Assembly (NCBI GenBank): GCA_040006915.1
Contig: JBDTWD010000001.1
Span: forward strand, 98,229-162,228
Length of the DNA stretch: 64,000 bases
Direction: 5' to 3'
Source: Candidatus Woesebacteria bacterium
GTDB lineage: Bacteria > Patescibacteriota > Microgenomatia > UBA1400 > UBA12028
Shown: positions 5,667 through 48,876 of the stretch, one piece after another
How positions within the stretch are numbered: the stretch's first letter is position 1
How the letters are laid out: each line of letters starts with the position of its first letter
Notes under the pieces: model-generated
Seen by the model: only the letters and a program-made list of their open reading frames with translations
Database searches by the model: none
What the model was told of the DNA's origin: nothing
Position numbers and translations under genes: made by a program

Positions 5667-5930
5667 ATGAAGAAAAAACTTGTGTTGCCCCATTTTAAAA
5701 ATGAAGATGATGAGAGAGACTTCTGGGCGAAAATAAACTTGGCTGATTATTTTGATCCTAGCGATTTTCAACCAGTGTCTTTTCCAAATCTAAAGCCAAC
5801 CTCAAAATCAGTTTCAATCCGAATTCCTGAATTTCTCTTGAATAGGATAAAAGAGGAGGCAAATCAGATAAACGTCCCTTATCAATCTCTTATTAAAAGC
5901 TCACTACAAGACAGATTTTTAAGTAAATAG
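5667..5930 (+). CDS. brnA: BrnA family antitoxin (RHH-like)
   Basis: 87 aa with the EDDERDFW...DYFDPSDF...IPEFLLNRIKEEANQINVPYQSLIKSSL pattern of BrnA. Starts 8 nt after brnT. Its TAG stop (5928-5930) is the first 3 nt of repeat L4. Confidence 0.7.
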   Translation: MKKKLVLPHFKNEDDERDFWAKINLADYFDPSDFQPVSFPNLKPTSKSVSIRIPEFLLNRIKEEANQINVPYQSLIKSSLQDRFLSK

Positions 5931-5963
5931 GTTCGAACATCCTCCAACTCAAGCCTTGCAAAC
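5928..5963 (+). repeat. cassette-array repeat copy L4 (TAGGTTCGAACATCCTCCAACTCAAGCCTTGCAAAC)
   Basis: Full-length copy overlapping the brnA stop codon. Confidence 0.75.
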
Positions 5964-6005
5964 GGGGTCTTTTCATGTAGATACCTCTGATATACTCCGA
6001 TATAT

Positions 6006-6614
6006 ATGAAATCAATGAATCAAAAAGTAAAAGAAGGTTACAACCGAGCGGCTAACGCTTATTCAAATAAGTTTCGTGATCAATTCAAAAGTAACCGTCA
6101 CCTAGACATGCTGATTCAGAAGTTGGAAAAGGGTTCAACCATTGTAGATATTGGATGCGGGAGCGGCGCACCCATCGATGCATATTTAGTACGACATGGA
6201 TTTGCAGTGACAGGTATCGACATTTCAGAAGAGCAAATCAAGCTTGCAAAGGAAAATGTTCCTGAGGCAACCTATGAAGTAATGGATATGTCTGATCTTA
6301 AAAAAGAGCAATTTCAGGTCGATGCCGTGGTGTCATTCTATGCATTGTTTCATATTCCACGTGAACAGCATTTGCATGTAGTGCAACTCATGAGGTCTTT
6401 CCTGAGACCGAACGGGTTACTACTCATTACTATGGGAGCGAGTGAGTGGGAGGGAAAAGATGATGACTTTTGTGGTACTGAAATGTATTGGAGTCATTTT
6501 GGTGTTGAGCAGAATAAAGAGCTTATTACTACAGCAGGATTTTCAATCTTATTTGATGAGATTGATACGACAGGAGATGAAAAACATCTCATTGTTCTTG
6601 CGAGGGCGGTATAG
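6006..6614 (+). CDS. class I SAM-dependent methyltransferase
   Basis: 202 aa. Motif I VDIGCGSGAP, motif II acidic residue (GIDISEE) and motif post-I AVVSFYALFH are present. Confidence 0.75.
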   Translation: MKSMNQKVKEGYNRAANAYSNKFRDQFKSNRHLDMLIQKLEKGSTIVDIGCGSGAPIDAYLVRHGFAVTGIDISEEQIKLAKENVPEATYEVMDMSDLKKEQFQVDAVVSFYALFHIPREQHLHVVQLMRSFLRPNGLLLITMGASEWEGKDDDFCGTEMYWSHFGVEQNKELITTAGFSILFDEIDTTGDEKHLIVLARAV

Positions 6615-6704
6615 TCTTGTCCAAAAAGATGGGCATTTGCATTTTCCACTCATCCCTGCATCCATGAGATATGAAAGTGTTTTCCGTTCGGTGAGTCATG
6701 AATC

Positions 6705-6929
6705 CTACAAATGAGTGAGATGTTCTTTTATGAGTGCTCCTGCAGTAGGAGAGACAGCAAGTTTGTATTTCGTATCAACCTCATCAAAGGGAACAAAGCC
6801 TACCCATTCCGTACGTGGATCTGTTGGTGTCCCTCTATCACTAGTCATCTCTGCTTGATAATACATTTGTAAGGATTGATGAAAGCCTGTCTTTGGGTGA
6901 TAGAACCAATCCACGACAGAAAACAGCAA
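6705..6929 (-). pseudogene. NUDIX hydrolase C-terminal fragment (likely remnant)
   Basis: The 74-aa ORF resembles only the C-terminal region of Nudix proteins (EWVGFVPFDEV...). No Nudix box is present upstream. Confidence 0.3.
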
Positions 6930-6941
6930 TTGTCCGTATTT

Positions 6942-7259
6942 TTATTTTCGAACTCTGCTTACTTCAAGTAGATTGAATATCGTCCACATCAACCAATTCC
7001 CACAATCAATTTGAGCCCTGCTCTCACCCAAACTTTTTCTTTCTCTTATTTTATCTTCGACAAGTTCCACTCCTCTTTTATATGCATCGTCTTCTGTATC
7101 CCCATCCTTGAGAGCACTCCTCCCTAAAACTTCAAATGCTAAATCAAGAAAAGCAGGGTCTGCATCATAAGGGGCACCATCAATTCCTCTTCCACCTGCC
7201 CAATATGAAGCTTCCTCAACCTGTTTTGCTGTTTGAATAAGTTCCTCTCGTCTAATCAT
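6942..7259 (-). CDS. hypothetical protein
   Basis: 105-aa acidic ORF in the hinge between the two repeat blocks. No motif. Confidence 0.4.
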   Translation of the reverse strand: MIRREELIQTAKQVEEASYWAGGRGIDGAPYDADPAFLDLAFEVLGRSALKDGDTEDDAYKRGVELVEDKIRERKSLGESRAQIDCGNWLMWTIFNLLEVSRVRK

Positions 7260-7347
7260 TATGCGATTATATCAAAATAGATCAGAGGGACGGAAGGAAT
7301 AAGTTCAAAATAGGACCTATTTTTGAATAACGTATCAATTTAATTCT

Positions 7348-7395
7348 TAGGTTCGAGCCTACTTTGCAGGGCTTAGTAGAGGACGTCAGAACCTA
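7348..7395 (-). repeat. cassette-array repeat copy R1, extended form (coding strand TAGGTTCTGACGTCCTCTACTAAGCCCTGCAAAGTAGGCTCGAACCTA)
   Basis: Terminal inverted arms TAGGTTC...GAACCTA. The distal arm AGGTTCGAGCC equals the T-arm of tRNA-Val at 63.8 kb. The first 3 nt are the TAG stop of gene 7393..7662. Confidence 0.75.
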
Positions 7396-7662
7396 CATGT
7401 TATGCAGTGCATAATTCTGAAGGAGTGTTCCATACATGAGAAAAGTCTCCGCTTCATCTAGTCCTACTTGTGAAGTCTTACTCACTTCTTTTGCAATGTC
7501 TTTTATATACTGTTTTTCAGCAACTAGTTCTAGTCGAGAAGACCATCGCTTTGCCTCAATTAAAAACTTATTAGCTGCGGTATGTGATCCTCGCTGCTTT
7601 AAACTTGCAATACGATATAAGTCATTTGATAGTGAACCAACAAGCATCTGGACATCGGTCAT
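7393..7662 (-). CDS. hypothetical protein, downstream member of an overlapping two-gene pair (possible toxin)
   Basis: 89-aa helical ORF. Its start overlaps the stop of 7659..7997 as ATGA. The stop lies within repeat R1. Confidence 0.45.
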   Translation of the reverse strand: MTDVQMLVGSLSNDLYRIASLKQRGSHTAANKFLIEAKRWSSRLELVAEKQYIKDIAKEVSKTSQVGLDEAETFLMYGTLLQNYALHNM

Positions 7663-7997
7663 AGAATCTCGCTAAAGAAAAATTCAGTTAATTTTTTATA
7701 TTCCTCACGCAATTTTTCGCTCTGAATTTCATTTTTCGTATTGTTATCTCTAGGTCGGATATTAATAAATGAGTTAAAATCTATCTCCTTTGTTTCAAGA
7801 TCTATGCCTCCACCCCAAATCATATGCTGATCTGACCCTTGTTCTAGAAGAATTTGTTCGCCCTCAAAATGTCTATTCATTCCAGAACTACACACTTTAT
7901 TTTCAACATCGATAACAGTTTTTATATACACTTCAAACTGCTCTTTTAACTGCTCAATCTCTTCAGGAGTAAATGGACTGGTCTTTGTGATTATCAT
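7659..7997 (-). CDS. hypothetical protein, upstream member of the two-gene pair (possible antitoxin)
   Basis: 112-aa acidic ORF with a 4-nt overlap to the downstream gene. Confidence 0.45.
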   Translation of the reverse strand: MIITKTSPFTPEEIEQLKEQFEVYIKTVIDVENKVCSSGMNRHFEGEQILLEQGSDQHMIWGGGIDLETKEIDFNSFINIRPRDNNTKNEIQSEKLREEYKKLTEFFFSEIL

Positions 7998-8040
7998 TAC
8001 CAGGATGATAGCAAAAGAACTATAAAGAAGGAATGTGTGT

Positions 8041-8063
8041 TTAGTAGAGGACGTCAGAACCTA
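8041..8063 (-). repeat. cassette-array repeat copy R2 (truncated: TTAGTAGAGGACGTCAGAACCTA; lacks the TTTGCAGGGC half)
   Basis: Matches the GGACGTCAGAACCTA half exactly. Confidence 0.7.
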
Positions 8064-8099
8064 TTTCAACAATTTCCAATGCCTAACTCTTGTTTAAAA

Positions 8100-8942
8100 T
8101 TATCTATTTTTTGAGATTGAAATTGTGGCAGTTGCATAAAAAATTGCATCTTTCGAGTTATATTGAGGAATGGAAAATAATTTATCATCGTAAAACTTTA
8201 TTTTCATTTTTGTTGGCTGGTTCATAGGCTGATGTCTTCCTTTAACTAAATAATAAACCCATTCATCGTCTGCCCAATATGTTGTTACTAGAACCAACTT
8301 TCCCAGTTGTAGTGCAATTTTATAAGAGTTATCCCCTCCTTTTTTAAGTTCACTCTCTGTTATAGTGTTATCAATCCCCATCCATAGAGAATTGTTCTCA
8401 AGATGACTATATCGTTTACTAGGTTCGTGCATTGTGGCCGTAACTAACACATGCTCAGGAATCTTACCTTCATAGAGTAGATTGTAGTGTTCAGGAGGAA
8501 CCACTTTAAAGTAGTTAGTGGCACTATTTAAAACGATTGATGTCTTGAACGTCCACTTTGTAATTAAATCTTTCTCAGATTGAGAAAGATTAATTATTTC
8601 CCTGCTACCCCTAATTAATGGCTTAAGTATATCTAAAGTAGTATCTTCAAGTAATTTCATCCACCCACCATTACAATATCCACATACACCACCTGCTAGA
8701 AAACTGTTCATGAATTGAAAATCTCTTTCTTCAGTGTTTTTATCTTCAAGTGGGCTATAGACGGTCAAACTTATTCGCAAGTTTTCAATGCCGAGATATG
8801 TAATTAACCAATGAGGGATCACATGTTCTTTTTTTCTATTAGACTTACCTAGTTTGCAATTACAAAATAGACATGTAGACCTATCTTCTCTTTCTTTTGG
8901 CTTTGTACTGGAGTGGAGATACTTTTCATCTACGAGTGGCAT
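8100..8942 (-). CDS. HNH-motif protein (CxxC...EHVIPHW...CxYCN) with an uncharacterised C-terminal domain
   Basis: 280-aa ORF. The N-terminus (CLFCNC, KEHVIPHWL, CGYCNGGW) resembles an HNH endonuclease zinc-finger core. The rest has no assignable motif. Confidence 0.5.
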   Translation of the reverse strand: MPLVDEKYLHSSTKPKEREDRSTCLFCNCKLGKSNRKKEHVIPHWLITYLGIENLRISLTVYSPLEDKNTEERDFQFMNSFLAGGVCGYCNGGWMKLLEDTTLDILKPLIRGSREIINLSQSEKDLITKWTFKTSIVLNSATNYFKVVPPEHYNLLYEGKIPEHVLVTATMHEPSKRYSHLENNSLWMGIDNTITESELKKGGDNSYKIALQLGKLVLVTTYWADDEWVYYLVKGRHQPMNQPTKMKIKFYDDKLFSIPQYNSKDAIFYATATISISKNR

Positions 8943-22536: not shown

Positions 22537-23976
22537 CTACGAACCTTTTACTGTATCCACCAGCTTCTCCCAAATCCGCACCATAGCGAGGGTATCGAGT
22601 TCACAGTATTTGAGTAAATTCTTCTTGATCTTTTCCTTCTCTTCTTGGGTTCCTTCTTCATATACCATCTGCCACCAGGCATTCATAGCAGTAGCACCTT
22701 CACCAATCTCTAAATTCTTGTAACTTAATTCTGGAACCAGAACTGGCAATACGTTTTTGATAGACCAGCTGCCTTTAAATTCCGGCATCACATACATGTC
22801 ATTTTCTTTAAACGGATCACCTAAGTCATACATGCGATCATTCACATCCATGAGGAAGTCTCGGTATCCAGGATAGAGCTCGGCCATCTGGACATTACAC
22901 CCCATTTCGTATGATTTATTCCAGGCAATCACAGTTCCCACTTTTGGCATATCTTGTTCCAACCGGTAGATGATTTCTTTGCTTGGATCAACTTTGGTTG
23001 TCACAATATGTTCAAAGTGCGTAATAGGTTCTCCGATATGTTCTAACACGTGAAGTGAATACTGAAAAGTCATTACCCCGTATGGATGGTAACCATCATA
23101 TATAGGAATGCCAGGATTAAAGGTTTCGTAATCCAAGAATGCGAGCGGAGTGATGAGTTGTTCTAGTTCGTGGCGAATTAAATCACGATCTATAAACGGC
23201 TTCCCTAGTTTTGTAACTTCAATTTGCTTGCGTTGTTTGGGTTTTAATGGAAAGTCGTCCGGGATATCAAGCATCGAAAGAATTCCCTGTTCTCGTAACT
23301 CCTTTTTATGCTTGGCCCATAGTCCTGAAACTTCAAAGATAGAATGCTCGGGGAGATTCGGGTTACACAGATCTGGACATGAACACGTCTTTGGATTTAA
23401 ACATCCTTCTATATGTTCTGAAGATTCTGCAAGGCATAGTTTCCATGCTTCTTCGCGCTTGGCACTGACTTCTTCGAACAAGTGTTTAATGGTGAGATCA
23501 ACCAAGGTGATTGTGAAAAACGCTTTGGGATCGATTTCTCCTGCTCGCACATATTCAGAATTGACTGTAACAATATAGATGTGACGAAGTTTTACGTGCT
23601 CTTGGAGAATCAGCGCTTGAAATGCTGCATCATACAAATGTCTGGTATCTCGGGCGTCCGTGCTACTTTTGATCTCGTAGAGATCGTAGACATCCTCAGT
23701 CTTGTCATGGACGAGTGCGTCAGTGCGCGCTTCAAAGTGAACATCGGTAAAGGTTTGTTGCCACAAGACCGTATTGATATCAGATTCAAGTGTCTGAGAA
23801 AGGAATTTTTTAGCCAGATCTTCAATCTGATATCCCTGTTTGGTTAAATGTGCATCAAAGGGAGAAAGTGGTGCCGGCGGAAGATTGGCATGTTTGCGCG
23901 CCCACAAATGCATGGGTGCTTCAAGATACAACAGAAAGTCGGATTTACTCAGTGTCATGAAGCTGTAGTATAGCAA
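22537..23976 (-). CDS. RecB/Cas4-like PD-(D/E)xK nuclease-domain protein with a Cys cluster (DUF2779-like)
   Basis: 479 aa. D...YDLYEIKSS (D/ExK) followed by a QALIL (QxxxY-like) region. Cys cluster EGCLNPKTCSCPDLC. C-terminal half unassigned. Confidence 0.5.
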   Translation of the reverse strand: MLYYSFMTLSKSDFLLYLEAPMHLWARKHANLPPAPLSPFDAHLTKQGYQIEDLAKKFLSQTLESDINTVLWQQTFTDVHFEARTDALVHDKTEDVYDLYEIKSSTDARDTRHLYDAAFQALILQEHVKLRHIYIVTVNSEYVRAGEIDPKAFFTITLVDLTIKHLFEEVSAKREEAWKLCLAESSEHIEGCLNPKTCSCPDLCNPNLPEHSIFEVSGLWAKHKKELREQGILSMLDIPDDFPLKPKQRKQIEVTKLGKPFIDRDLIRHELEQLITPLAFLDYETFNPGIPIYDGYHPYGVMTFQYSLHVLEHIGEPITHFEHIVTTKVDPSKEIIYRLEQDMPKVGTVIAWNKSYEMGCNVQMAELYPGYRDFLMDVNDRMYDLGDPFKENDMYVMPEFKGSWSIKNVLPVLVPELSYKNLEIGEGATAMNAWWQMVYEEGTQEEKEKIKKNLLKYCELDTLAMVRIWEKLVDTVKGS

Positions 23977-41020: not shown

Positions 41021-41056
41021 TTGACATTCCAGCCAGTTCTTACGTATGATGAAAGT

Positions 41057-42823
41057 ATGTCTCGTCGCGTCGATGTCTTTCGTGTTTTATTTTTCTGTTT
41101 GTTTATTGTCCTGGTAGGCGGACTTTTCTTGTTGAAGACAGCTCCAGCACAGGCTGTAACTGCCGCACAGGTGTGTCAAGCGGATATCAATCAAGATGGT
41201 ACTGTCAATCTCTCTGACTATTCGATTTTTATTAAAAACTTTTTGGTAAGCCCAGTGGTAGCTTTACGTGCAGATATCAACGGAGACGGAACTGTCAATA
41301 TTAGTGACTATACGTTATTGGTTGGTTCTTTCTTGCAACAGTGTGCGGTAGCTCCAACAGCAACTCCGGTAACTTCAGGTGGCGCTCCAGGTGACAGCAT
41401 GGCGATGCAAGCATGGAGCGTGGGTGGAAAGAATGCCCCTAATCCTAAATATGATAAGTGTGACGATGGCACTGATGTGGTGAAGGCACACAACTCTTAC
41501 TATGTAGTCGCGTACGATGGAATGAAGTATCCCACTTGGCATCCTCCAGTTGTGACAAATCCAATTACTGGAGTTGGAAAATGCTACTTTGGTCACGAAC
41601 ATGGAACCAATCCACAAGGTTATCAGTATTGGGATGAGATTGTGCAGCATTTCGGCAAAGACGTGAATGGTGACGGTAAAATAACTGCAATGGTAATCGG
41701 TACGGATGGCAAAATTACACCTGGTGATCATGCCGGTATTCCGTTTGGAATCGCAAATGAACACATGAACGAATACTACAACCAAGAAGGACGTGATTCG
41801 ATCTTCGTACGACATGAAGATCACGTCGGACACAAAATTGAATATGTAAACGGTGAAGCAGACATGGTGGGAAATACTACTCATGTGATGCAGCCGATCA
41901 ATACGACCGGTGGAATCAATGTTCCGTATTATAAAGGTACTGACTCAAATACCTACTATCCGACTGGTGTCAAATGCACCCACTTTCATAAGTTCCATCA
42001 AGGGACGCATTCAGGTGATGCGATGAGAAATAATTTGCATGAAGTGATCTTCCATTCCAACTGTACCAGTGATCGACCAGAATATCCAAGTAACGAAGTA
42101 ATCCTCACCGGTATGATGAGTTTTGGAAACCCTGGAGAGTATAAGCGTTTCTGTGGGAACGATCGAAGTACTGTTGTTTGTGTAGATGGCAAAGACTCAA
42201 GTGGAAAATGCATCATCACAGACCCTCTCATTAGTAAATTGCCGGGAAGCATCTACAGTAACACCTTAGGTCGCAACATGATTGATCGATATTGTTTGCA
42301 GAACGTGGACAGTATTACCGGAAGCTTCTACTTCAATCCGTACGAAATTTGGCAAGGTGATTTCCGTATTTCGACTCCAAACGGAAAGTTATTAGCGGAA
42401 CACGGCAGACAGTGGGATGTCTTGGATCCAATTCGCTTCGTCGATCCAAACTCAGCTACAGGCTTTGGATATAACTCACAGGAATGTGGACCAGGAGGAC
42501 TCTTATACAAGCGAACCCTAAACTGTGGAGCTCTTGAAAGCAAGAGTGTCCCGTGGGACTCACCGCAATCAGGATTTAGAGGTCTGAAACGTACAACCTA
42601 CTTTGGTCGCAATCGAGTTTCAAATGCTGGTGGATCGCAGACTTGGTGGACAGATCCACTCGGAGGAAATGCAACCACGACGCAGTTTGCTTCAGGACTA
42701 AAGCAGCACTTCTCTTCCGTTGAGGCTGACATCTGTAAACTGACCGAGTGCTCAAAACTCAATGATCGAGCTATCCAGAGACAGTTTAATGATGGTGGTG
42801 GAACTGTACACGCTCCCAACTGA
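41057..42823 (+). CDS. secreted protein with two dockerin-like Ca-binding repeats plus the conserved His-motif domain (paralog of 38419..40503)
   Basis: Signal/TM segment. DINQDGTVNLSDY and DINGDGTVNISDY repeats. Then YPTWHPP, FGHEHG, GIPFGIANE, RHEDHVGHKI and HQGTHS, ending ..GGTVHAPN. The track start is TTG; the ATG at 41057 is preferred. Confidence 0.6.
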   Translation: MSRRVDVFRVLFFCLFIVLVGGLFLLKTAPAQAVTAAQVCQADINQDGTVNLSDYSIFIKNFLVSPVVALRADINGDGTVNISDYTLLVGSFLQQCAVAPTATPVTSGGAPGDSMAMQAWSVGGKNAPNPKYDKCDDGTDVVKAHNSYYVVAYDGMKYPTWHPPVVTNPITGVGKCYFGHEHGTNPQGYQYWDEIVQHFGKDVNGDGKITAMVIGTDGKITPGDHAGIPFGIANEHMNEYYNQEGRDSIFVRHEDHVGHKIEYVNGEADMVGNTTHVMQPINTTGGINVPYYKGTDSNTYYPTGVKCTHFHKFHQGTHSGDAMRNNLHEVIFHSNCTSDRPEYPSNEVILTGMMSFGNPGEYKRFCGNDRSTVVCVDGKDSSGKCIITDPLISKLPGSIYSNTLGRNMIDRYCLQNVDSITGSFYFNPYEIWQGDFRISTPNGKLLAEHGRQWDVLDPIRFVDPNSATGFGYNSQECGPGGLLYKRTLNCGALESKSVPWDSPQSGFRGLKRTTYFGRNRVSNAGGSQTWWTDPLGGNATTTQFASGLKQHFSSVEADICKLTECSKLNDRAIQRQFNDGGGTVHAPN

Positions 42824-42883
42824 TCGCTTTCCTCGAGAATAGACGAAATTCTTGCCTCCTTATTTTTGGTGTTTGCATGAATA

Positions 42884-42892
42884 TGCTATACT
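42884..42892 (+). promoter_or_regulatory. extended -10 promoter element TGCTATACT for the his leader/operon
   Basis: TGn plus TATACT. A weak -35 (TTTGGT) lies 17 nt upstream. Confidence 0.35.
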
Positions 42893-42901
42893 GTATTTTC
42901 T

Positions 42902-42982
42902 ATGTGTAAACGATTTGGGTTTACCAGCAATGTCCATCATCACTCCTCGCATATTTCGCGTGGGAGTGTTTCTCTGTTGTAA
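42902..42982 (+). CDS. candidate his operon leader peptide (MCKRFGFTSNVHHHSSHISRGSVSLL)
   Basis: 26-codon ORF with four His codons (CAT CAT CAC ... CAT at 42935-42952) that overlap hairpin segment 1. Confidence 0.4.
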   Translation: MCKRFGFTSNVHHHSSHISRGSVSLL

Positions 42983-43009
42983 TTCTTAATCACCTTTGAT
43001 CAAAACACC

Positions 43010-43033
43010 ACTCCTGCGCGCGGGAGTTTTTTT
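43010..43033 (+). terminator. intrinsic terminator / attenuator hairpin (ACTCCTGCGCGCGGGAGT + T7)
   Basis: 7-bp stem with a CGCG loop, followed by TTTTTTT (43027-43033). The alternative pairings 42941-46 with 42963-68 and 42963-68 with 43009-14 (CACTCC/GGAGTG) give a classical attenuator layout. Confidence 0.55.
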
Positions 43034-43094
43034 GTGTCTGTTGACATAAAAATTTCTCAGATACTCTCCGTTTTGGTCAAGTTTTAAGGAATAT

Positions 43095-43868
43095 ATGAAA
43101 ACAACTGAACAACAAACAACAATCCTTCTCCCTTCAGGGGAATGGTTGAATAATTTTATAGTAGGAATGAAAAACAGCGGCTTTCCGCTGGAAAAGCCAT
43201 CAGAACGAAGCTTGTCTTGGACAATGCCAAATTGTCGGCTGCCGATTCTGTTCAAAGAAGTACGAGCTTCAGACGTGCCGGTAACGATGCTTGATTCTGA
43301 TGTTACCGCGAAGGCTGGGTTTACCGGATCTGATATCGTCATAGAAAGCGGATTGCTCTCTTTGCAATTCGGAGCATCTGGTCAGGATCGAGGTGAAAAA
43401 GATTGTAGTCCGTTGTTAAAAAAGATTTGGAATTTTCCAACGGATCAACTCGTCCCAACGCCTATACGACCTCGATTAGCTATCTCGGTGGATCCTCAGA
43501 AGTATACGAAGAATCCTAAGGCTTTCCAGCTTACTGATTTGCGAGGGACGACCGTCTACACTTCATTTCCACGTATTACTCAAACTCTATTTGATCGTAG
43601 TGGTGTAAATGCTATTCCGATTCGGATAAAAGAGCGACGAGGCAAAATCGAAGCACTACCAAGTTTAGATAGGACCAGTCTAGCGGAAGTAGACATTATT
43701 AATACAGGGAGAACACAGACGGAAAATGAACTCGTTGAAGCAATGACGATACTTGAATCCGCCTTATTATTATTGGTTTCCGCAGATGTAAATCAGCGAG
43801 ATGAGCAACGAATCGATGACTTCATCGCGCTCGTGAATGAGGCAACCAAAAAAGAAAGGATGGTGTGA
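43095..43868 (+). CDS. hisG: ATP phosphoribosyltransferase
   Basis: N-terminal LPSGEWLNNF... and GFTGSDIVIESG fit HisG. First gene after the attenuator. Confidence 0.75.
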   Translation: MKTTEQQTTILLPSGEWLNNFIVGMKNSGFPLEKPSERSLSWTMPNCRLPILFKEVRASDVPVTMLDSDVTAKAGFTGSDIVIESGLLSLQFGASGQDRGEKDCSPLLKKIWNFPTDQLVPTPIRPRLAISVDPQKYTKNPKAFQLTDLRGTTVYTSFPRITQTLFDRSGVNAIPIRIKERRGKIEALPSLDRTSLAEVDIINTGRTQTENELVEAMTILESALLLLVSADVNQRDEQRIDDFIALVNEATKKERMV

Positions 43869-43872
43869 AACT

Positions 43873-44952
43873 ATGAACATTTCATCCTTTTTTAGACCAG
43901 TAGTACGTGAGAATTTTTCGACGTATGTACCTTCTCTGTCTCTAGAACAAATTGTCAATATAACGAAGCAACCAAAAAGATCGATTCTGAAGCTCGATAG
44001 TGGAGAAAATCGGTGGACACCCAAAATACCGATTGACTGGAAGACGATAGAAAAAAATGTTGCACTTTATCCAGATTCAGACTCACTGTCTTTGCGACAA
44101 GCTTTATCTTTGGACTTGGGGGTAAGTCCAGATTGTATCGTGATTGGAAATGGATCGGATGAATTGATTGATTTGACATGCCGACTGTTCTTAGAGAAAG
44201 GTAAAATATTGATCGATTTCTCTCCCACATTTCCCATGTACGCTTTTTTTGGGAGGCTGTGTGGCGCCACCGTGATTACAGTCCCCAGAGAGAAAAATTA
44301 TCAGTTAAATGTGAAAGCAGTGAAACAGGCACTGAAAAAATCTCAACTCGCGTTTATTGCCAACCCAAACAACCCGACTGGAACAGTGATTCCCCGCCCA
44401 ATCCTCGTTGAACTGTTGTCTGTAGGCATACCAATTGTGATTGATGAAGCATATTTTGAATTTTATGGTGAAACAGTCATTGATCTTGTATCGGAGTTTG
44501 AAAACCTCATCGTTTTACGTACATTTTCAAAATGGGCAGGTGTAGCTGGTCTGCGAGTAGGATACATGGTCACGAATCCGACTATTGCCGATCGTATTCG
44601 CGCTATAAAACCACCCTACGGGGTAAACAGCTTTGCGCAGGCAGTTGCATGCATTCTGATACAAAATAAAAATCTATTTCTCCCATCCTTGCGTGCGATA
44701 CAAGCGTCTAGAGAATGGTGCATTGCTGAGATCAACAGTCTACCGGGATTGAATGCTGTAGCCTCGCAGGCGTCGTGCGTTTCTGTGTTATCGGAGCAAA
44801 TATCAGCATCAATGATTGTTGAAAGACTTTTGCAGAAAGGGATCGTTGTCAAATTGCTCCCACAAAATCTGTTACCGAATGCCTTTCGCATGAGCATCGC
44901 TCCTAAAAAGGAAATGAAAATCGTTATTCAAGCTTTACTGGAAATTATATGA
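43873..44952 (+). CDS. hisC: histidinol-phosphate aminotransferase
   Basis: Class II aminotransferase motifs: NPNNPTG and the PLP-Lys region FSKWAGVAGLRVGY. Start set at the ATG at 43873. Confidence 0.75.
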   Translation: MNISSFFRPVVRENFSTYVPSLSLEQIVNITKQPKRSILKLDSGENRWTPKIPIDWKTIEKNVALYPDSDSLSLRQALSLDLGVSPDCIVIGNGSDELIDLTCRLFLEKGKILIDFSPTFPMYAFFGRLCGATVITVPREKNYQLNVKAVKQALKKSQLAFIANPNNPTGTVIPRPILVELLSVGIPIVIDEAYFEFYGETVIDLVSEFENLIVLRTFSKWAGVAGLRVGYMVTNPTIADRIRAIKPPYGVNSFAQAVACILIQNKNLFLPSLRAIQASREWCIAEINSLPGLNAVASQASCVSVLSEQISASMIVERLLQKGIVVKLLPQNLLPNAFRMSIAPKKEMKIVIQALLEII

Positions 44953-45048
44953 ACAAAAAAATAACCAAAATCTTCATTGCCGAACCAGGAGAATCTCCTC
45001 AAAAAATCGTTGACTGTGTAAAAAATTTAGTTGAGGAGAATAACACTT

Positions 45049-46353
45049 ATGCTTAATATTTATCGCTGGTCAGAGACCGATCTAAAGAGAAAGAAACAAA
45101 TCACTGAGCGTGCCATGCTCGATATTTCTGAGATTAAAGAATACGTGGCTGGGTGGATGGAAACCATTAAAAATGAAGGAGACGCTGGAATTGTGAAGTA
45201 CACACGGCAATTTGATAAAAAGGATTTTGAAATAAAAGATTTACGAGTTACTAAAGAAGATATTCAGAAAGCATATGAATCTGTAGATCCTCGTGTGGTA
45301 GAAGTACTGAAACGTCAAATTAGTATTTCTAGACAAAATGCCCTTTCAAAGGCTGGTCAGGAAACTGTTTTAAAGTCCTTTGTCCCTGGCGTGCAAGTTG
45401 GTTACAAAATTACTCCTATTGAATCGGTTGGGCTTGCTGTGCCAGCTGGTCAAGTGCCTCTGCCAACTGTGATGCAGATTTTGACGGTTACTGCCAAAGC
45501 CGCTGGAGTTCCTAGAGTGGTTGCCTGTTATCCACCTACAGGTGACTATCCAGAAATGCTGATTGCAGCAGACTTAGCTGGTTGCGATGAAGTTTATCGA
45601 GTGGGTGGGATTGCGGGCATTGCTGCTATGGCCTACGGGACTGAAACCATCAAACCTGTCTTAAAGATTTCGGGACCAGGCAGCATTTATACTCAGGCAG
45701 CCAAAATGCTCGCTTATGGTAGGGTCAGTATTGATATGGTGGCAGGACCATCTGAAGCAATTATCCTCGCTGACAAAGATGCTAATCCTATTTTCTGTGC
45801 TGCAGATATCCTGGCTCGAGCTGAACACGCTCCAGACGCAGCTGGAGTATTGGTGACTGATTCTGTTGAGTTAGCTCAGGCGACGCAAAAAGAAGTTGAG
45901 CGACAAATTCAGTACCTCAGTAGACGAGAAGTGATTGAGAAATCATTGGCTAAGTACTCATGTGCAATTGTCACAGAGTCATGGCAAGAAGCAATTGATT
46001 TTACCAATGACTATAGTCCAGAACACTTAGAAGTTTTGGTCGCAGAGCCATTCGCTATTTTGCCATTCATTAAAAATGCGGGATCAATTTTTCTAGGTCA
46101 ATATGCGCCAGTAGCAGTTGGAGATTATGCCAGTGGGACTAACCACATTTTGCCTACTGGATACTGGTCAAAGATGGTTTCAGCGGTGAGTGTCGAGACT
46201 TTTCAGAAATCTTCAGAATTACAGTATTTGACCAAAGAAGGTTTAGAAAACTTAGCCGAAATTGTTGATGTGGTATCGGGAATAGAAAAACTTGATGCTC
46301 ACTGGAATAGTGTGAATGTTCGATTAAATCAAAAAAGGAGAAAATATGAATGA
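45049..46353 (+). CDS. hisD: histidinol dehydrogenase
   Basis: AGPSE and SPEHLE motifs. GAGGAG SD before the ATG at 45049. Confidence 0.85.
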   Translation: MLNIYRWSETDLKRKKQITERAMLDISEIKEYVAGWMETIKNEGDAGIVKYTRQFDKKDFEIKDLRVTKEDIQKAYESVDPRVVEVLKRQISISRQNALSKAGQETVLKSFVPGVQVGYKITPIESVGLAVPAGQVPLPTVMQILTVTAKAAGVPRVVACYPPTGDYPEMLIAADLAGCDEVYRVGGIAGIAAMAYGTETIKPVLKISGPGSIYTQAAKMLAYGRVSIDMVAGPSEAIILADKDANPIFCAADILARAEHAPDAAGVLVTDSVELAQATQKEVERQIQYLSRREVIEKSLAKYSCAIVTESWQEAIDFTNDYSPEHLEVLVAEPFAILPFIKNAGSIFLGQYAPVAVGDYASGTNHILPTGYWSKMVSAVSVETFQKSSELQYLTKEGLENLAEIVDVVSGIEKLDAHWNSVNVRLNQKRRKYE

Positions 46354-47005
46354 AAAACTAGGTTTGTTTATTAACGAAGTGAAAAAAGAGAAAATTTCTT
46401 TGTCTCGGGTGACGCGAGAATCACAAATCGATATAGTAATCGAAGATGCACCAAGACGTGACTACAACATTCAAACTGGCAATAGGTTCTTCAATCACAT
46501 GTTAACGGGAATCGCTTCCAGAGCGTGTTTAAATCTAGATGTTCAATATACACCGACGATTGCGGAACCACTCGACCACGTTGTGGTGGAAGACACTGGT
46601 CTTACGATGGGGAGGGCTATCCGTGAACTTTTGGACTCCCGTCAATCCGATGGTGTCAGTCAACGTGGAACATACACAGTGGCCTTTGATGAGGCGTTAG
46701 TACAAGTAACACTTGCGTTTGATGGAAGGGCCTATACCTTTCTGCGCGGAGAGGTTCCTGGGATGATGTTAGAAAAAGTCGAAGATATTCTTAGTACAAA
46801 TTTACGGCAATTTTTTGACGGATTTTCTCAGGGAGCCGGATGCGTGGTGACTGTTCAATTTATTTCTGGAAACGATTCGCACCACACTTGGGAGGCAGCT
46901 TTCAAAGCCTTTGGTGAAGCTCTACGAGAATCTTTGCAACCCTGTCCTTACCGAGCAGGAACCACCATCGGATTGAAAGGGACCGGTATGGAGGGAAAAC
47001 TATGA
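46346..47005 (+). CDS. hisB: imidazoleglycerol-phosphate dehydratase
   Basis: FNHML and LDHVVVEDTG metal-binding motifs of IGPD. Confidence 0.85.
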   Translation: MNEKLGLFINEVKKEKISLSRVTRESQIDIVIEDAPRRDYNIQTGNRFFNHMLTGIASRACLNLDVQYTPTIAEPLDHVVVEDTGLTMGRAIRELLDSRQSDGVSQRGTYTVAFDEALVQVTLAFDGRAYTFLRGEVPGMMLEKVEDILSTNLRQFFDGFSQGAGCVVTVQFISGNDSHHTWEAAFKAFGEALRESLQPCPYRAGTTIGLKGTGMEGKL

Positions 47006-47337
47006 TTTCAGCAAATCTCGACCTTCGTAAAGGAGGAGGCTTGATACCCGCCATCATTCAAGATGAACAAACTAAAGCTATTCTAATGCTTGGATATATG
47101 AATGAGGAATCTTTGGGAAGATCTGTATCAACGGGATTCGTCTGTTTTTGGAGTCGAAGCCGAAAAAAATTATGGATGAAAGGAGAAGAATCGGGAAACA
47201 CATTACGAATCAAACGCATTTTTGTTGATTGCGATGAGGATACTCTCCTTATTTCTGTCGAGCTGAGTGGTATATCGGCGTGCCACACGGGAAAGTACTC
47301 GTGTTTCTTTACCGAATTGAGGGAGGATAGTCTATGA
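47002..47337 (+). CDS. hisI: phosphoribosyl-AMP cyclohydrolase
   Basis: LIPAIIQD...WMKGEESGNTL..DCDEDTLL and a CHTGK C-terminus. Confidence 0.8.
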   Translation: MISANLDLRKGGGLIPAIIQDEQTKAILMLGYMNEESLGRSVSTGFVCFWSRSRKKLWMKGEESGNTLRIKRIFVDCDEDTLLISVELSGISACHTGKYSCFFTELREDSL

Positions 47338-47636
47338 CCATTACGCAATTATTTGGGATAATTACCCTCAAAAAAAACCTGAGACAAGAAAATTCATATA
47401 TCAGTTCTTTGTTCAGTCAGGGTGTAGATCGAATCATTCAGAAAGTGGGAGAAGAAGCCGTGGAATTGGTAATCGCTGCTAAAAATCAGAGTAAAGAACG
47501 AGTGATTTCTGAGGCAGCAGATCTTGTGTTTCACAGTCTCGTCCTTTTTTCCGCCCTCGGAATTTCTCCCAACGAGATTATGCAAGAGTTAGAACTGAGA
47601 AATGTAAAAAGAAATGATACGATACAACAGGAGTAA
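47334..47636 (+). CDS. hisE: phosphoribosyl-ATP pyrophosphatase
   Basis: 100-aa MazG-like protein with ...KVGEEAVELVIAAKN...EAADLVFH. Confidence 0.8.
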   Translation: MTITQLFGIITLKKNLRQENSYISSLFSQGVDRIIQKVGEEAVELVIAAKNQSKERVISEAADLVFHSLVLFSALGISPNEIMQELELRNVKRNDTIQQE

Positions 47637-47640
47637 TATT

Positions 47641-48876
47641 ATGAATCAACCACAAGTATTAAAAGGATTTCGAGATTTTCTGCCCAGGGACATACGAGCA
47701 CGAGAGTATGTCATGGGCAAAATTAAGCAAACCTTTAAACAGTTTGGCTTTGAGTCTATTGAAACACCCACGATTGAATACAAATCCACAATTATGGGAA
47801 AGTATGGAGAAGAGGCAGATAAATTAGTGTATGCCTTTACGGATAATGGTGATCGTGAAGTGGCGCTTCGATATGACCAGACCGTTCCGACTGCTCGTTT
47901 CATTGCCAACAACTTTAATGAAATCTCCTTCCCTTTCAGACGCTATCAAACCCAGAACGTATTCCGAGCTGATAAACCTCAAAAAGGCCGTTATCGTGAA
48001 TTTACTCAGTGCGATATCGATATCTTTGGAAGCAGCGATCCAACCGCTGATGCAGAGATCCTTGCCTGCACATACGCAGCCTATAAGGCCATAGGGTTTC
48101 AAACGATCCAAATCTTGGTTAATGATAGACAGACATTAGTCTCCGTTTTAAAGCCGTATGAAACAGATACAGTTAGTGTGTTTTCAATTATCCAAACAAT
48201 AGATAAGATGGATAAGCTACCTAAAGATGAGGTCATTGCTGAGTTGGTGCGAAAAGGAATGACGAATGTAAATGCCGTTGACGCTTTAACTAATTTGCTT
48301 GCAGTTAACCCCTCAGCTAATCTAGAGCAAATAATGTCACTAGCTGAGGCATTAGGCGTTAGTGATGCCGAGATCTCATTTGAACCAACCCTTGCTCGGG
48401 GACTTGATTATTACACAGGCATGATCTTTGAAGTAAAAATTCCAGAGTTTGCAGTTGGCTCAGTAGGGGCTGGTGGTCGTTATGACAATTTAATTGAACA
48501 ATTATCTGGAGTGGAGATGAGTGCTGTGGGTATGGCTGTTGGTTTTGATCGCACTGTCGATGCGGCTATACAGTTTGACTTGATTCCTACAGCACTGGAT
48601 GACAAAAAAGTGTTGGTTACTGTTTTTGATGCAGCTTTGATTGGAGAATCAGCCAGCGTGACCAAAACCCTTCGAGAACAAGGATTGTCAGTAGAGCTGT
48701 ACCCAAAATTTACTAAACTTGATAAACAGTTTAAGTATGCAGACAAAAAAGGGATCCGCTATTGCATTGTTATTGGCTCTCAAGAAGTGGAGAACAATCA
48801 AGTGATGCTCAAAGACCTGTCTGATGGAAAGCAGGAACTCTTGAATCTTGATGCTCTAGTTGAAAAACTGAAATAA
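47641..48876 (+). CDS. hisS: histidyl-tRNA synthetase (full length with anticodon-binding domain), embedded in the his operon
   Basis: LKGFRDFLP motif 1 region, class II core, and a C-terminal anticodon-binding domain. CAGGAG SD before the ATG at 47641. Confidence 0.75.
   Translation: MNQPQVLKGFRDFLPRDIRAREYVMGKIKQTFKQFGFESIETPTIEYKSTIMGKYGEEADKLVYAFTDNGDREVALRYDQTVPTARFIANNFNEISFPFRRYQTQNVFRADKPQKGRYREFTQCDIDIFGSSDPTADAEILACTYAAYKAIGFQTIQILVNDRQTLVSVLKPYETDTVSVFSIIQTIDKMDKLPKDEVIAELVRKGMTNVNAVDALTNLLAVNPSANLEQIMSLAEALGVSDAEISFEPTLARGLDYYTGMIFEVKIPEFAVGSVGAGGRYDNLIEQLSGVEMSAVGMAVGFDRTVDAAIQFDLIPTALDDKKVLVTVFDAALIGESASVTKTLREQGLSVELYPKFTKLDKQFKYADKKGIRYCIVIGSQEVENNQVMLKDLSDGKQELLNLDALVEKLK

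Follow-up and report, generated by a model that had tools for sequence, protein, structure and literature searches.

A probable histidine-tRNA-sensing attenuator with an apparently leaderless leader peptide gene upstream of the his operon in a Candidatus Woesebacteria genome

Bacteria of the Candidate Phyla Radiation (CPR, or Patescibacteria) tend to be described as metabolically minimal, and their gene regulation is poorly known. How one of them might control its histidine genes is the question raised by a 64,000-nt stretch of a Candidatus Woesebacteria contig (JBDTWD010000001.1, positions 98,229 to 162,228; the whole stretch is hereafter the window). In the window, a leader region (42824–43094) sits between a dockerin-domain gene (41021–42823, plus strand) and a hisG-like gene, the first of the operon hisG-C-D-B-I-E-hisS. 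An earlier reading, made from the letters of the DNA without database searches (hereafter, the sequence-only reading), had proposed that this leader is a transcription attenuator with a His-codon leader peptide. We have very high confidence that the region is a real his-linked terminator/antiterminator leader. Based on sequence comparison and fold modeling, it is quite probably a ribosome-mediated transcription attenuator that senses His-tRNA and controls the operon from hisG to hisS.

The elements of the proposed attenuator were all located in the window (Table 1). The sequence-only reading had described an open reading frame (ORF) of 26 codons with an HHHSSH box, and both are present. The leader holds only four His codons (42935–42943 and 42950–42952), the same number as was originally counted, and they overlap the CACTCC motif (42941–42946) of segment 1. 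Segment 2 contains GGAGTG (42963–42968) and segment 3 contains CACTCC (43009–43014), and the two alternative pairings proposed for them were confirmed and found to be longer than first described. Helix 1:2 is formed by CACUCCUCGC and GCG-U-GGGAGUG (10 bp), and helix 2:3 by CGCGUGGGAGUG and CACUCCUGCGCG (12 bp, including two G-U pairs). The terminator hairpin with its seven U residues, also detected by a terminator scan, ends 62 nt upstream of hisG, the start of which at 43095 was likewise verified (Pfam HisG, E = 1.6e-14), and the leader is only ~130 nt long up to the terminator. When the leader was folded, the minimum free energy (MFE) structure depended on the stretch chosen and showed 1:2 with the terminator in one case and the 2:3 antiterminator in the other. 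Dinucleotide shuffles gave higher fold energies (z = -2.15 and -2.9), a modest difference taken alone, and the leader goes beyond chance because its arrangement is conserved at 11 other distinct loci.

Apart from L055 and L086, these relatives were reached via the window HisC protein (41–55% identity), on contigs that carry a hisG-hisC module after 200–310 nt of non-coding DNA, and the same leader was read in every hisG-hisC upstream spacer examined. The comparison set comprises 12 distinct leaders, that is, the window and 11 further copies on unrelated metagenome contigs (L019, L021, L022, L024, L025, L026, L029, L033, L034, L055, and L086). A DNA-pattern scan of metagenomes with the core ATCACTYCNCNCAT N5-10 GYGGGAG returned 81 stretches, among which only L055 and L086 are true leaders, the others being chance matches in GC-rich DNA. 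A covariance model (R1) was built from five sequences with a structure consisting of helix 1:2, an outer helix that brackets the terminator, and the terminator stem (3:4); for its seed, alignment A5 was dropped in favor of A4, as the 3' arm of the outer helix was misaligned in the former. The model had a single hit in the window (42929–43081) and one in each of the 11 loci (E values from 4e-24 to 1.4e-4), and recovered all seven leaders outside the seed (E values from 9.6e-13 to 1.4e-4). The leader was found upstream of the hisG-hisC module in 10 of these 12 hits and directly upstream of hisS in L086 (minus strand, ~1069–1183), with two more hairpins before the hisS start, while the downstream gene of the L055 leader (minus strand) lies beyond the contig. 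The HisG identity is only 24–36% among seven aligned leader-linked proteins, thus the leader-bearing lineages are deeply diverged, yet the leader core is conserved.

The gene upstream of the leader varies among these loci (GNAT, tRNA, or a Trp-repressor-family gene, PF01371) and in L022, L026, and L033 it runs in the opposite direction, therefore the terminator belongs to the leader and not to the upstream gene. This contradicts an explanation in which the hairpin and U7 terminate the dockerin gene, the his promoter is the TTGACA at 43041–43046, and the His-codon ORF arose by chance. From the window by itself such an explanation could be drawn, since the dockerin gene, which runs in the same direction, lacks another terminator, the hairpin is followed by a perfect TTGACA with TACTCT 15 nt later, and the fold z-scores of the window are just -2.2 to -2.9. 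The TTGACA, however, lies in a window-specific insertion of ~25 nt that is not found in the relatives, and the syntenic neighbor in L020 is a GNAT gene without any dockerin gene, whereas the ORF, segments 1 to 4, and the terminator accompany hisG or hisS at all 11 other loci. We therefore rejected this explanation, to which we assign a vanishingly small probability, as contradicted by the comparative data.

The spacing between the elements is kept as well. The terminator is present in 12/12 leaders, with a tract of 4–8 U that begins 43–54 nt after the leader stop codon. The stop codon itself is located 7–19 nt past the core of segment 2 (GCGGGAG) in all 12 (13 nt in the window, stop at 42980). 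The first G of this core follows the His codons at the first three positions of the His box (p1–p3) by 18–30 nt (21–27 nt in most leaders). From the invariant last His (p6) to the GGGAG core, the distance is 11–15 nt (12 nt in nine of the 12).

The antiterminator and the terminator are supported by their pattern of sequence change. The 2:3 antiterminator was the consensus helix given by RNAalifold for the 12 leaders on an unguided MAFFT alignment, and this plain alignment was also used for counting in 2:3, a region where the model alignment shifts L034 by one column. The 12-bp helix was 83.9% paired and had a covariation score of 0.192 in comparison with a shuffle mean of 0.118; none of 500 shuffles reached it, and controls with slid partners scored 0.049–0.172. 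One column pair in this helix (82/148) is CG in eight sequences and UA in four, and because column 148 is within the terminator loop, this covariation is not explained by 3:4 pairing. For the terminator, four of the seven pairs had changes on both sides, with 92.9% of cells paired in the model alignment of the 12 sequences. Helix 1:2 was 85.7% paired over the 12 sequences and nearly invariant (three invariant pairs and one double change), thus its support comes from conservation and not from covariation. Overall, 92% of the cells were paired in the model alignment versus 39–53% with the partners slid, where it should be considered that this alignment was fitted to the structure of the model and hence leans toward it. 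The compensatory changes in 2:3, along with the 3–4 His codons kept in 12/12 leaders, support the attenuation that the sequence-only reading had put forward.

We then consider whether the leader ORF is likely to be read by ribosomes. Its length is 23–32 codons across the 12 leaders, and the His box is always in frame with the start codon (ATG in 10 leaders, GTG in two). The box has the pattern [H/Y/V][H/Y]H-x-x-H in 11 of the 12 and is one codon shorter in L026 (HHHSH), and L025 has a fifth His near the C-terminus. From the start codon up to the His box, the frame of the His codons had no stop in 115 codons, versus 18 in the 208 codons of the other two frames (P ~3e-5), although the sequence of this part is not conserved. 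Outside the His box, the peptide is not conserved. In L022 and L033, a 1-nt difference in the distance from the His box to segment 2 changes the frame in which the latter is read (AGV instead of RGS), with its nucleotides kept. Selection is thus on RNA and His codons, not on a protein. The same observations speak against the ORF, conserved as an ORF though it is, encoding a functional small protein, or regulating hisG translation only, with a hairpin that is stabilizing or a partial terminator and with no sensing of an amino acid. In the MFE structure of 5/11 leaders, the hisG Shine-Dalgarno (SD) sequence is paired with pyrimidines that follow the leader stop codon, which would fit an effect on translation, but the pairing is inconsistent and the probability of the SD being unpaired is not systematically lowered, and the covariation of the antiterminator would have no purpose. 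We thus consider this explanation very improbable.

Within the His box, p1 and p2 vary only between CAT and TAT (His and Tyr) and are never CAC, with the exception of GTG in L034, and p3 is always CAC. The family of hisC, one of the genes presumably regulated here, serves aromatic amino-acid synthesis in some bacteria, and it is Tyr that alternates with His at p1 and p2.

The start of the leader ORF points to leaderless initiation. No SD sequence was found upstream of the ORF in the window, and the 12 leaders all have a -10 box 6–12 nt upstream of the start codon, without an SD, with TG upstream of the box in eight. The leaderless start implied in the sequence-only reading is backed by this arrangement, and the leader transcript probably begins at AUG 42902 or 1–3 nt before it, given the position of the box. 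A similar geometry is common in the window. Counting boxes with at least 5/6 matches, 14 of the 30 first-in-operon genes had a -10 box 5–10 nt before the start codon, versus 3.7% of all ATGs, and eight of the 14 also had an upstream TG (often TGnTATAMT), with no SD. Operon-internal genes such as hisG and hisD carry SD sequences. First cistrons in this genome seem to be leaderless as a rule, and because the -10 geometry is common at first genes and the SD at internal ones, the leader ORF would use the usual first-cistron initiation of its genome. Examples of leaderless-type starts are those at 6006(+), 7259(-), 7997(-), 10329(-), 12030(-), and 16384(+), and further ones are at 23958(-), 28266(-), 51766(+), 53896(-), and 60873(-).

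How the leader may work can be outlined from these elements. Driven by the extended -10 box, transcription would begin at or next to AUG 42902, so that the mRNA is leaderless, and a ribosome would translate the 26-codon leader while RNA polymerase transcribes the rest of it. When His-tRNA(His) is scarce, the ribosome would stall with its A site on one of the first three His codons (42935–42943), covering segment 1 and leaving segment 2 free, so that the 12-bp 2:3 antiterminator could form in place of the terminator and transcription would read through into hisG. When His-tRNA is plentiful, the ribosome would reach the stop codon (42980), 13 nt beyond the segment-2 core, and either mask the 3' end of segment 2 or depart so that 1:2 forms; segments 3 and 4 would then form the terminator, and transcription would end in the U tract near 43033. 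We infer translation of the leader ORF, its leaderless initiation, and the response of read-through to His-tRNA charging.

This scheme was simulated by masking a ribosome footprint (up to +12 from the first base of the A site) and calculating how probable the terminator stem is in nascent RNA, with equilibrium folding as a crude stand-in for co-transcriptional folding. With a stall at p1–p3, P(terminator) was ≤0.11 in eight of the 12 leaders (0.00 in the window) and 0.35 in L022. With the ribosome at the stop codon, it was ≥0.8 in 10 of the 12, the others being the window (0.22) and L021 (0.45). Because the stall at p1–p3 derepresses and a stall at p6 terminates in this model, p1–p3 are likely the sensing codons, with 2–3 His per leader.

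Several observations weigh against a His-sensing attenuator. In the equilibrium model, L024, L029, and L086 were unchanged by a stall at p1–p3, and a stall at p6 masks the 5' half of segment 2 so that termination is predicted. P(terminator) was only 0.14–0.22 in the window for the free nascent RNA or with the ribosome at the stop codon. A nested fold of 1:4 plus 2:3 also competes and is preferred by the free RNA of the window, thus the argument depends on the co-transcriptional order of events. Only 2–3 His codons are in the zone where a stall derepresses, whereas E. coli hisL has seven; the trpL leader carries two Trp codons, and the number here is comparable to that. The His codons show no synonymous variation, so that constraints at the nucleotide and codon levels are inseparable at p1–p3. 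The four UA cases at column pair 82/148 may stem from few independent events, and the outer helix is foreign to the classical attenuation scheme.

Some of these points could instead indicate a trans-acting factor, which might be a small molecule, a protein, or uncharged tRNA(His) and would set the switch by binding a highly conserved hairpin, YAUCACUCC...GCGGGAGU, with the ORF and its His codons as by-products. Segments 1 and 2 are conserved to an unusual degree in primary sequence and 1:2 hardly covaries, the His codons are few and undergo His/Tyr transitions only, with no synonymous changes, and three leaders did not switch in the ribosome-footprint model. CAC is moreover complementary to the GUG anticodon of tRNA(His). 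On the other hand, an RNA that binds a factor would not need a start codon 6–12 nt after a -10 box and in the frame of the His box, as seen in 12/12 leaders, nor a frame kept open through an unconserved N-terminal part (P ~3e-5), nor a stop codon kept in position. The UGGG motif that could pair with the 3' end of tRNA(His) is in the window only, the other leaders having CGGG, and four mutually complementary segments, one of them coding, already account for the conservation of the sequence. Neither a T-box nor another known RNA family was matched by the leader of the window (E ≤ 10, apart from the chance matches described below) or by the relatives (gathering score). We consider a factor-binding switch improbable, and attenuation by a translating ribosome remains the preferred explanation.

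A feature not expected in such an attenuator, and not noted in the sequence-only reading, is the outer helix, the arms of which lie just 5' of segment 3 and after the U tract. All 12 leaders have this helix, its 3' arm ending 14–31 nt before the start of the next gene. Compensatory changes were found at seven of the eight modeled pairs, with 99% of cells paired in the model alignment, and the sequences vary widely (e.g., ACGCAATAATCATCA / TGATGATTATTGCGT in L034, 15 bp). Because the 3' arm is transcribed past the termination point, the helix forms only in read-through RNA, on which it must act, and has no part in the termination decision. Sequestration of the hisG SD by the outer helix or leader was inconsistent among the leaders, and P(unpaired) was not systematically lowered. 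As a tentative and rather doubtful suggestion, the outer helix could add a further layer, undescribed to date, by deciding what becomes of the full-length his mRNA once termination has been avoided; it might be a processing site, stabilize the 5' end, or control hisG translation. If true, the leader would work in two steps and be specific to CPR bacteria rich in leaderless mRNA, and would indicate that these reduced genomes keep a tRNA-charging-based control of a partial his pathway.

The comparison with known systems indicates a new family. Searched against Rfam at the gathering score, the whole window had one tRNA only and the 11 relatives had no match, and the stretch 42700–43250 at E ≤ 10 had four weak chance matches, which included neither the T-box nor His_leader. 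The sequence-only reading had left room for a T-box or another riboswitch in place of an attenuator, and no family reached the threshold in the leader of the window or in the relatives. Membership in His_leader (RF00514) and in the T-box family (RF00230) was accordingly rejected. In comparison with the enterobacterial hisL, the leader is similar in having a short His-codon ORF upstream of hisG and alternative hairpins that end in an intrinsic terminator, and in its expected read-out, charged His-tRNA via the position of the ribosome. It differs in having no homology to RF00514 in sequence or structure (cmscan, E ≤ 10), and hisL has seven His in a row, whereas the four of the window are not all consecutive and the relatives have 3–4 in the box. 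Further differences are the apparently leaderless ORF without an SD, the extra helix bracketing the terminator, hisS in the operon, and the CPR host. Six segments (A–F) are distinguished in hisL, versus four here. The mechanism of hisL attenuation is summarized in PMC3896937, citing Johnston et al. 1980.

Leader peptides without an SD are documented elsewhere. The Corynebacterium glutamicum ilvBNC attenuator needs no ribosome-binding site for its leader peptide (Morbach et al. 2000, ref. 42 in PMC4046766), and leader peptides are also predicted for trp, leuA, and aroF of C. glutamicum, while the his genes of C. glutamicum are described as having no His-codon leader peptide (PMC3896937). Our leader, as a probable transcription attenuator, resembles ilvBNC in its putative SD-less leader peptide, in its few (3–4) control codons, and in a host that seems rich in leaderless mRNA, but ilvBNC senses a different amino acid, belongs to Actinobacteria, and is unrelated in sequence. 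The leaderless polycysteine short ORFs of mycobacteria have an output by sequestration of the ribosome-binding site (Canestrari et al., bioRxiv 10.1101/834739). They have a leaderless first-cistron ORF with cognate codons, where stalling remodels the downstream RNA and biosynthetic genes are controlled, as is proposed for our leader, whereas the conserved output here is an intrinsic terminator and U tract, thus transcriptional, and the SD pairing is inconsistent. The T-boxes of Firmicutes (his, hisS) likewise are terminator/antiterminator leaders, and report tRNA(His) charging as is proposed here; unlike them, our leader has no specifier loop, T-box sequence, or Rfam match, is only ~130 nt long, and contains a conserved ORF. 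No description of attenuators in CPR/Patescibacteria was found in the literature. We class the leader as a new family of the classical attenuation kind, distinguished by the apparently leaderless leader ORF and the covarying outer helix.

The conserved His-codon leader would indicate that some Microgenomates-type genomes make enzymes of the histidine pathway and HisRS, and that they tune these genes to tRNA charging, with the classical ribosome-sensing logic on a leaderless mRNA. The covariance model could be used to annotate hisG and hisS leaders in metagenomes, and the leader may serve as a natural test case of leaderless translation coupled to transcription termination.

Table 1 Coordinates of the leader elements and of the his operon in the window
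Feature	Sequence	Position	Strand	Basis or remark
Putative extended -10 promoter	TGCTATACT	42884–42892	+	Read from sequence; ends 9 nt before leader ATG
Leader ORF	MCKRFGFTSNVHHHSSHISRGSVSLL	42902–42982	+	26 codons + TAA; ATG 42902, TAA 42980–42982
His box (p1–p6)	CAT CAT CAC TCC TCG CAT (HHHSSH)	42935–42952	+	Sequence and comparison of 12 leaders
Segment 1	CACTCCTCGC	42941–42950	+	Pairs with segment 2
Segment 2	CGCGTGGGAGTG	42957–42968	+	Pairs with segment 1 or segment 3
Outer helix, 5' arm	GATCAAAAC	42998–43006	+	Just 5' of segment 3
Segment 3	CACTCCTGCGCG	43009–43020	+	3' strand of antiterminator; overlaps 5' arm of terminator
Intrinsic terminator	ACTCCTG-CGCG-CGGGAGT + U7	43010–43033	+	Hairpin 43010–43027, T7 43027–43033; also found by terminator scan
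Outer helix, 3' arm	GTTTTGGTC	43070–43078	+	After U tract; ends 16 nt before hisG start
hisG Shine-Dalgarno	AAGGA	43086–43090	+	Read from sequence
Putatively regulated operon hisG-C-D-B-I-E-hisS		43095–48876	+	Pfam assignments
hisG-like		43095–43868	+	ATG at 43095; Pfam HisG, E = 1.6e-14
hisC		ORF from 43837, end 44952	+	Pfam
hisD		ORF from 45031, end 46353	+	Pfam
hisB		46346–47005	+	Pfam
hisI		47002–47337	+	Pfam
hisE		47334–47636	+	Pfam
hisS		47614–48876	+	Pfam

The genes of the his operon mostly overlap or nearly abut, with the biggest gap (78 nt) between the hisC stop codon and the hisD ORF. The HisG-like protein of the window, assigned by its NCBI record to a Candidatus Woesebacteria metagenome-assembled genome, has 257 aa and is very divergent; a word-indexed search of 5.8 billion proteins with it matched only itself. 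Insertions of ~20 residues were observed in the HisG of the window and of L026 among the leader-linked HisG proteins. A metagenome scan with HisG peptides returned no relative, and the HisG alignment was dropped as a scan query because it was too divergent. The genes hisH, hisA, and hisF were not found across the 64-kb window by tblastn with the three proteins of L001, where they are placed between hisB and hisI (5900–8750). Several leader-bearing contigs carry hisG-hisC only, with or without hisE, hisI, or hisS. The his pathway may be split or incomplete.

Relatives of the window HisD are 68–93% identical to it and mostly labeled Microgenomates, and their loci have another gene order (e.g., hisS-hisC-hisD-hisB-...-hisI-hisE) with a HisC only ~30% identical to that of the window. 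Neither an upstream hisG nor the leader was found at these loci (14 genome loci and four contigs), and the covariance model had no credible hit in 15 hisD-type loci, with one marginal match (L004, E = 0.95). The HisD relatives were thus uninformative for comparing leaders. The contigs L002, L003, L008, L010, and L013 have a HisD 78–84% identical to that of the window and are labeled Aggregatilineales, Chloroflexota, Anaerolineaceae, or Gammaproteobacteria; binning contamination, mislabeling, and gene transfer are possible reasons for these odd labels.

A few features are particular to single loci. In L025 (2996–3068) and L086, a tRNA gene is located directly upstream of the leader promoter, with an anticodon loop read as tRNA-Ala(CGC). 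In L055, TTTATTAG is repeated in tandem about nine times from the outer 3' arm to the next ATG, which may be real or an assembly artefact. In the window, the region from the U tract to the outer 3' arm (43034–43069), which includes the TTGACA and TACTCT motifs and is not conserved in the relatives, pairs with the U tract as a hairpin of its own in the MFE fold, and from its motifs it could be an internal promoter for basal his expression. The dockerin-domain gene between the GNAT gene and the his leader is likewise seen in the window only. L019 and L020 share the gene order of the window (minus-strand ddl, then a large protein, the GNAT gene, and leader-hisG; L020 1612–4259) and have no dockerin gene, which suggests, from gene order, that this gene is an insertion in the window.

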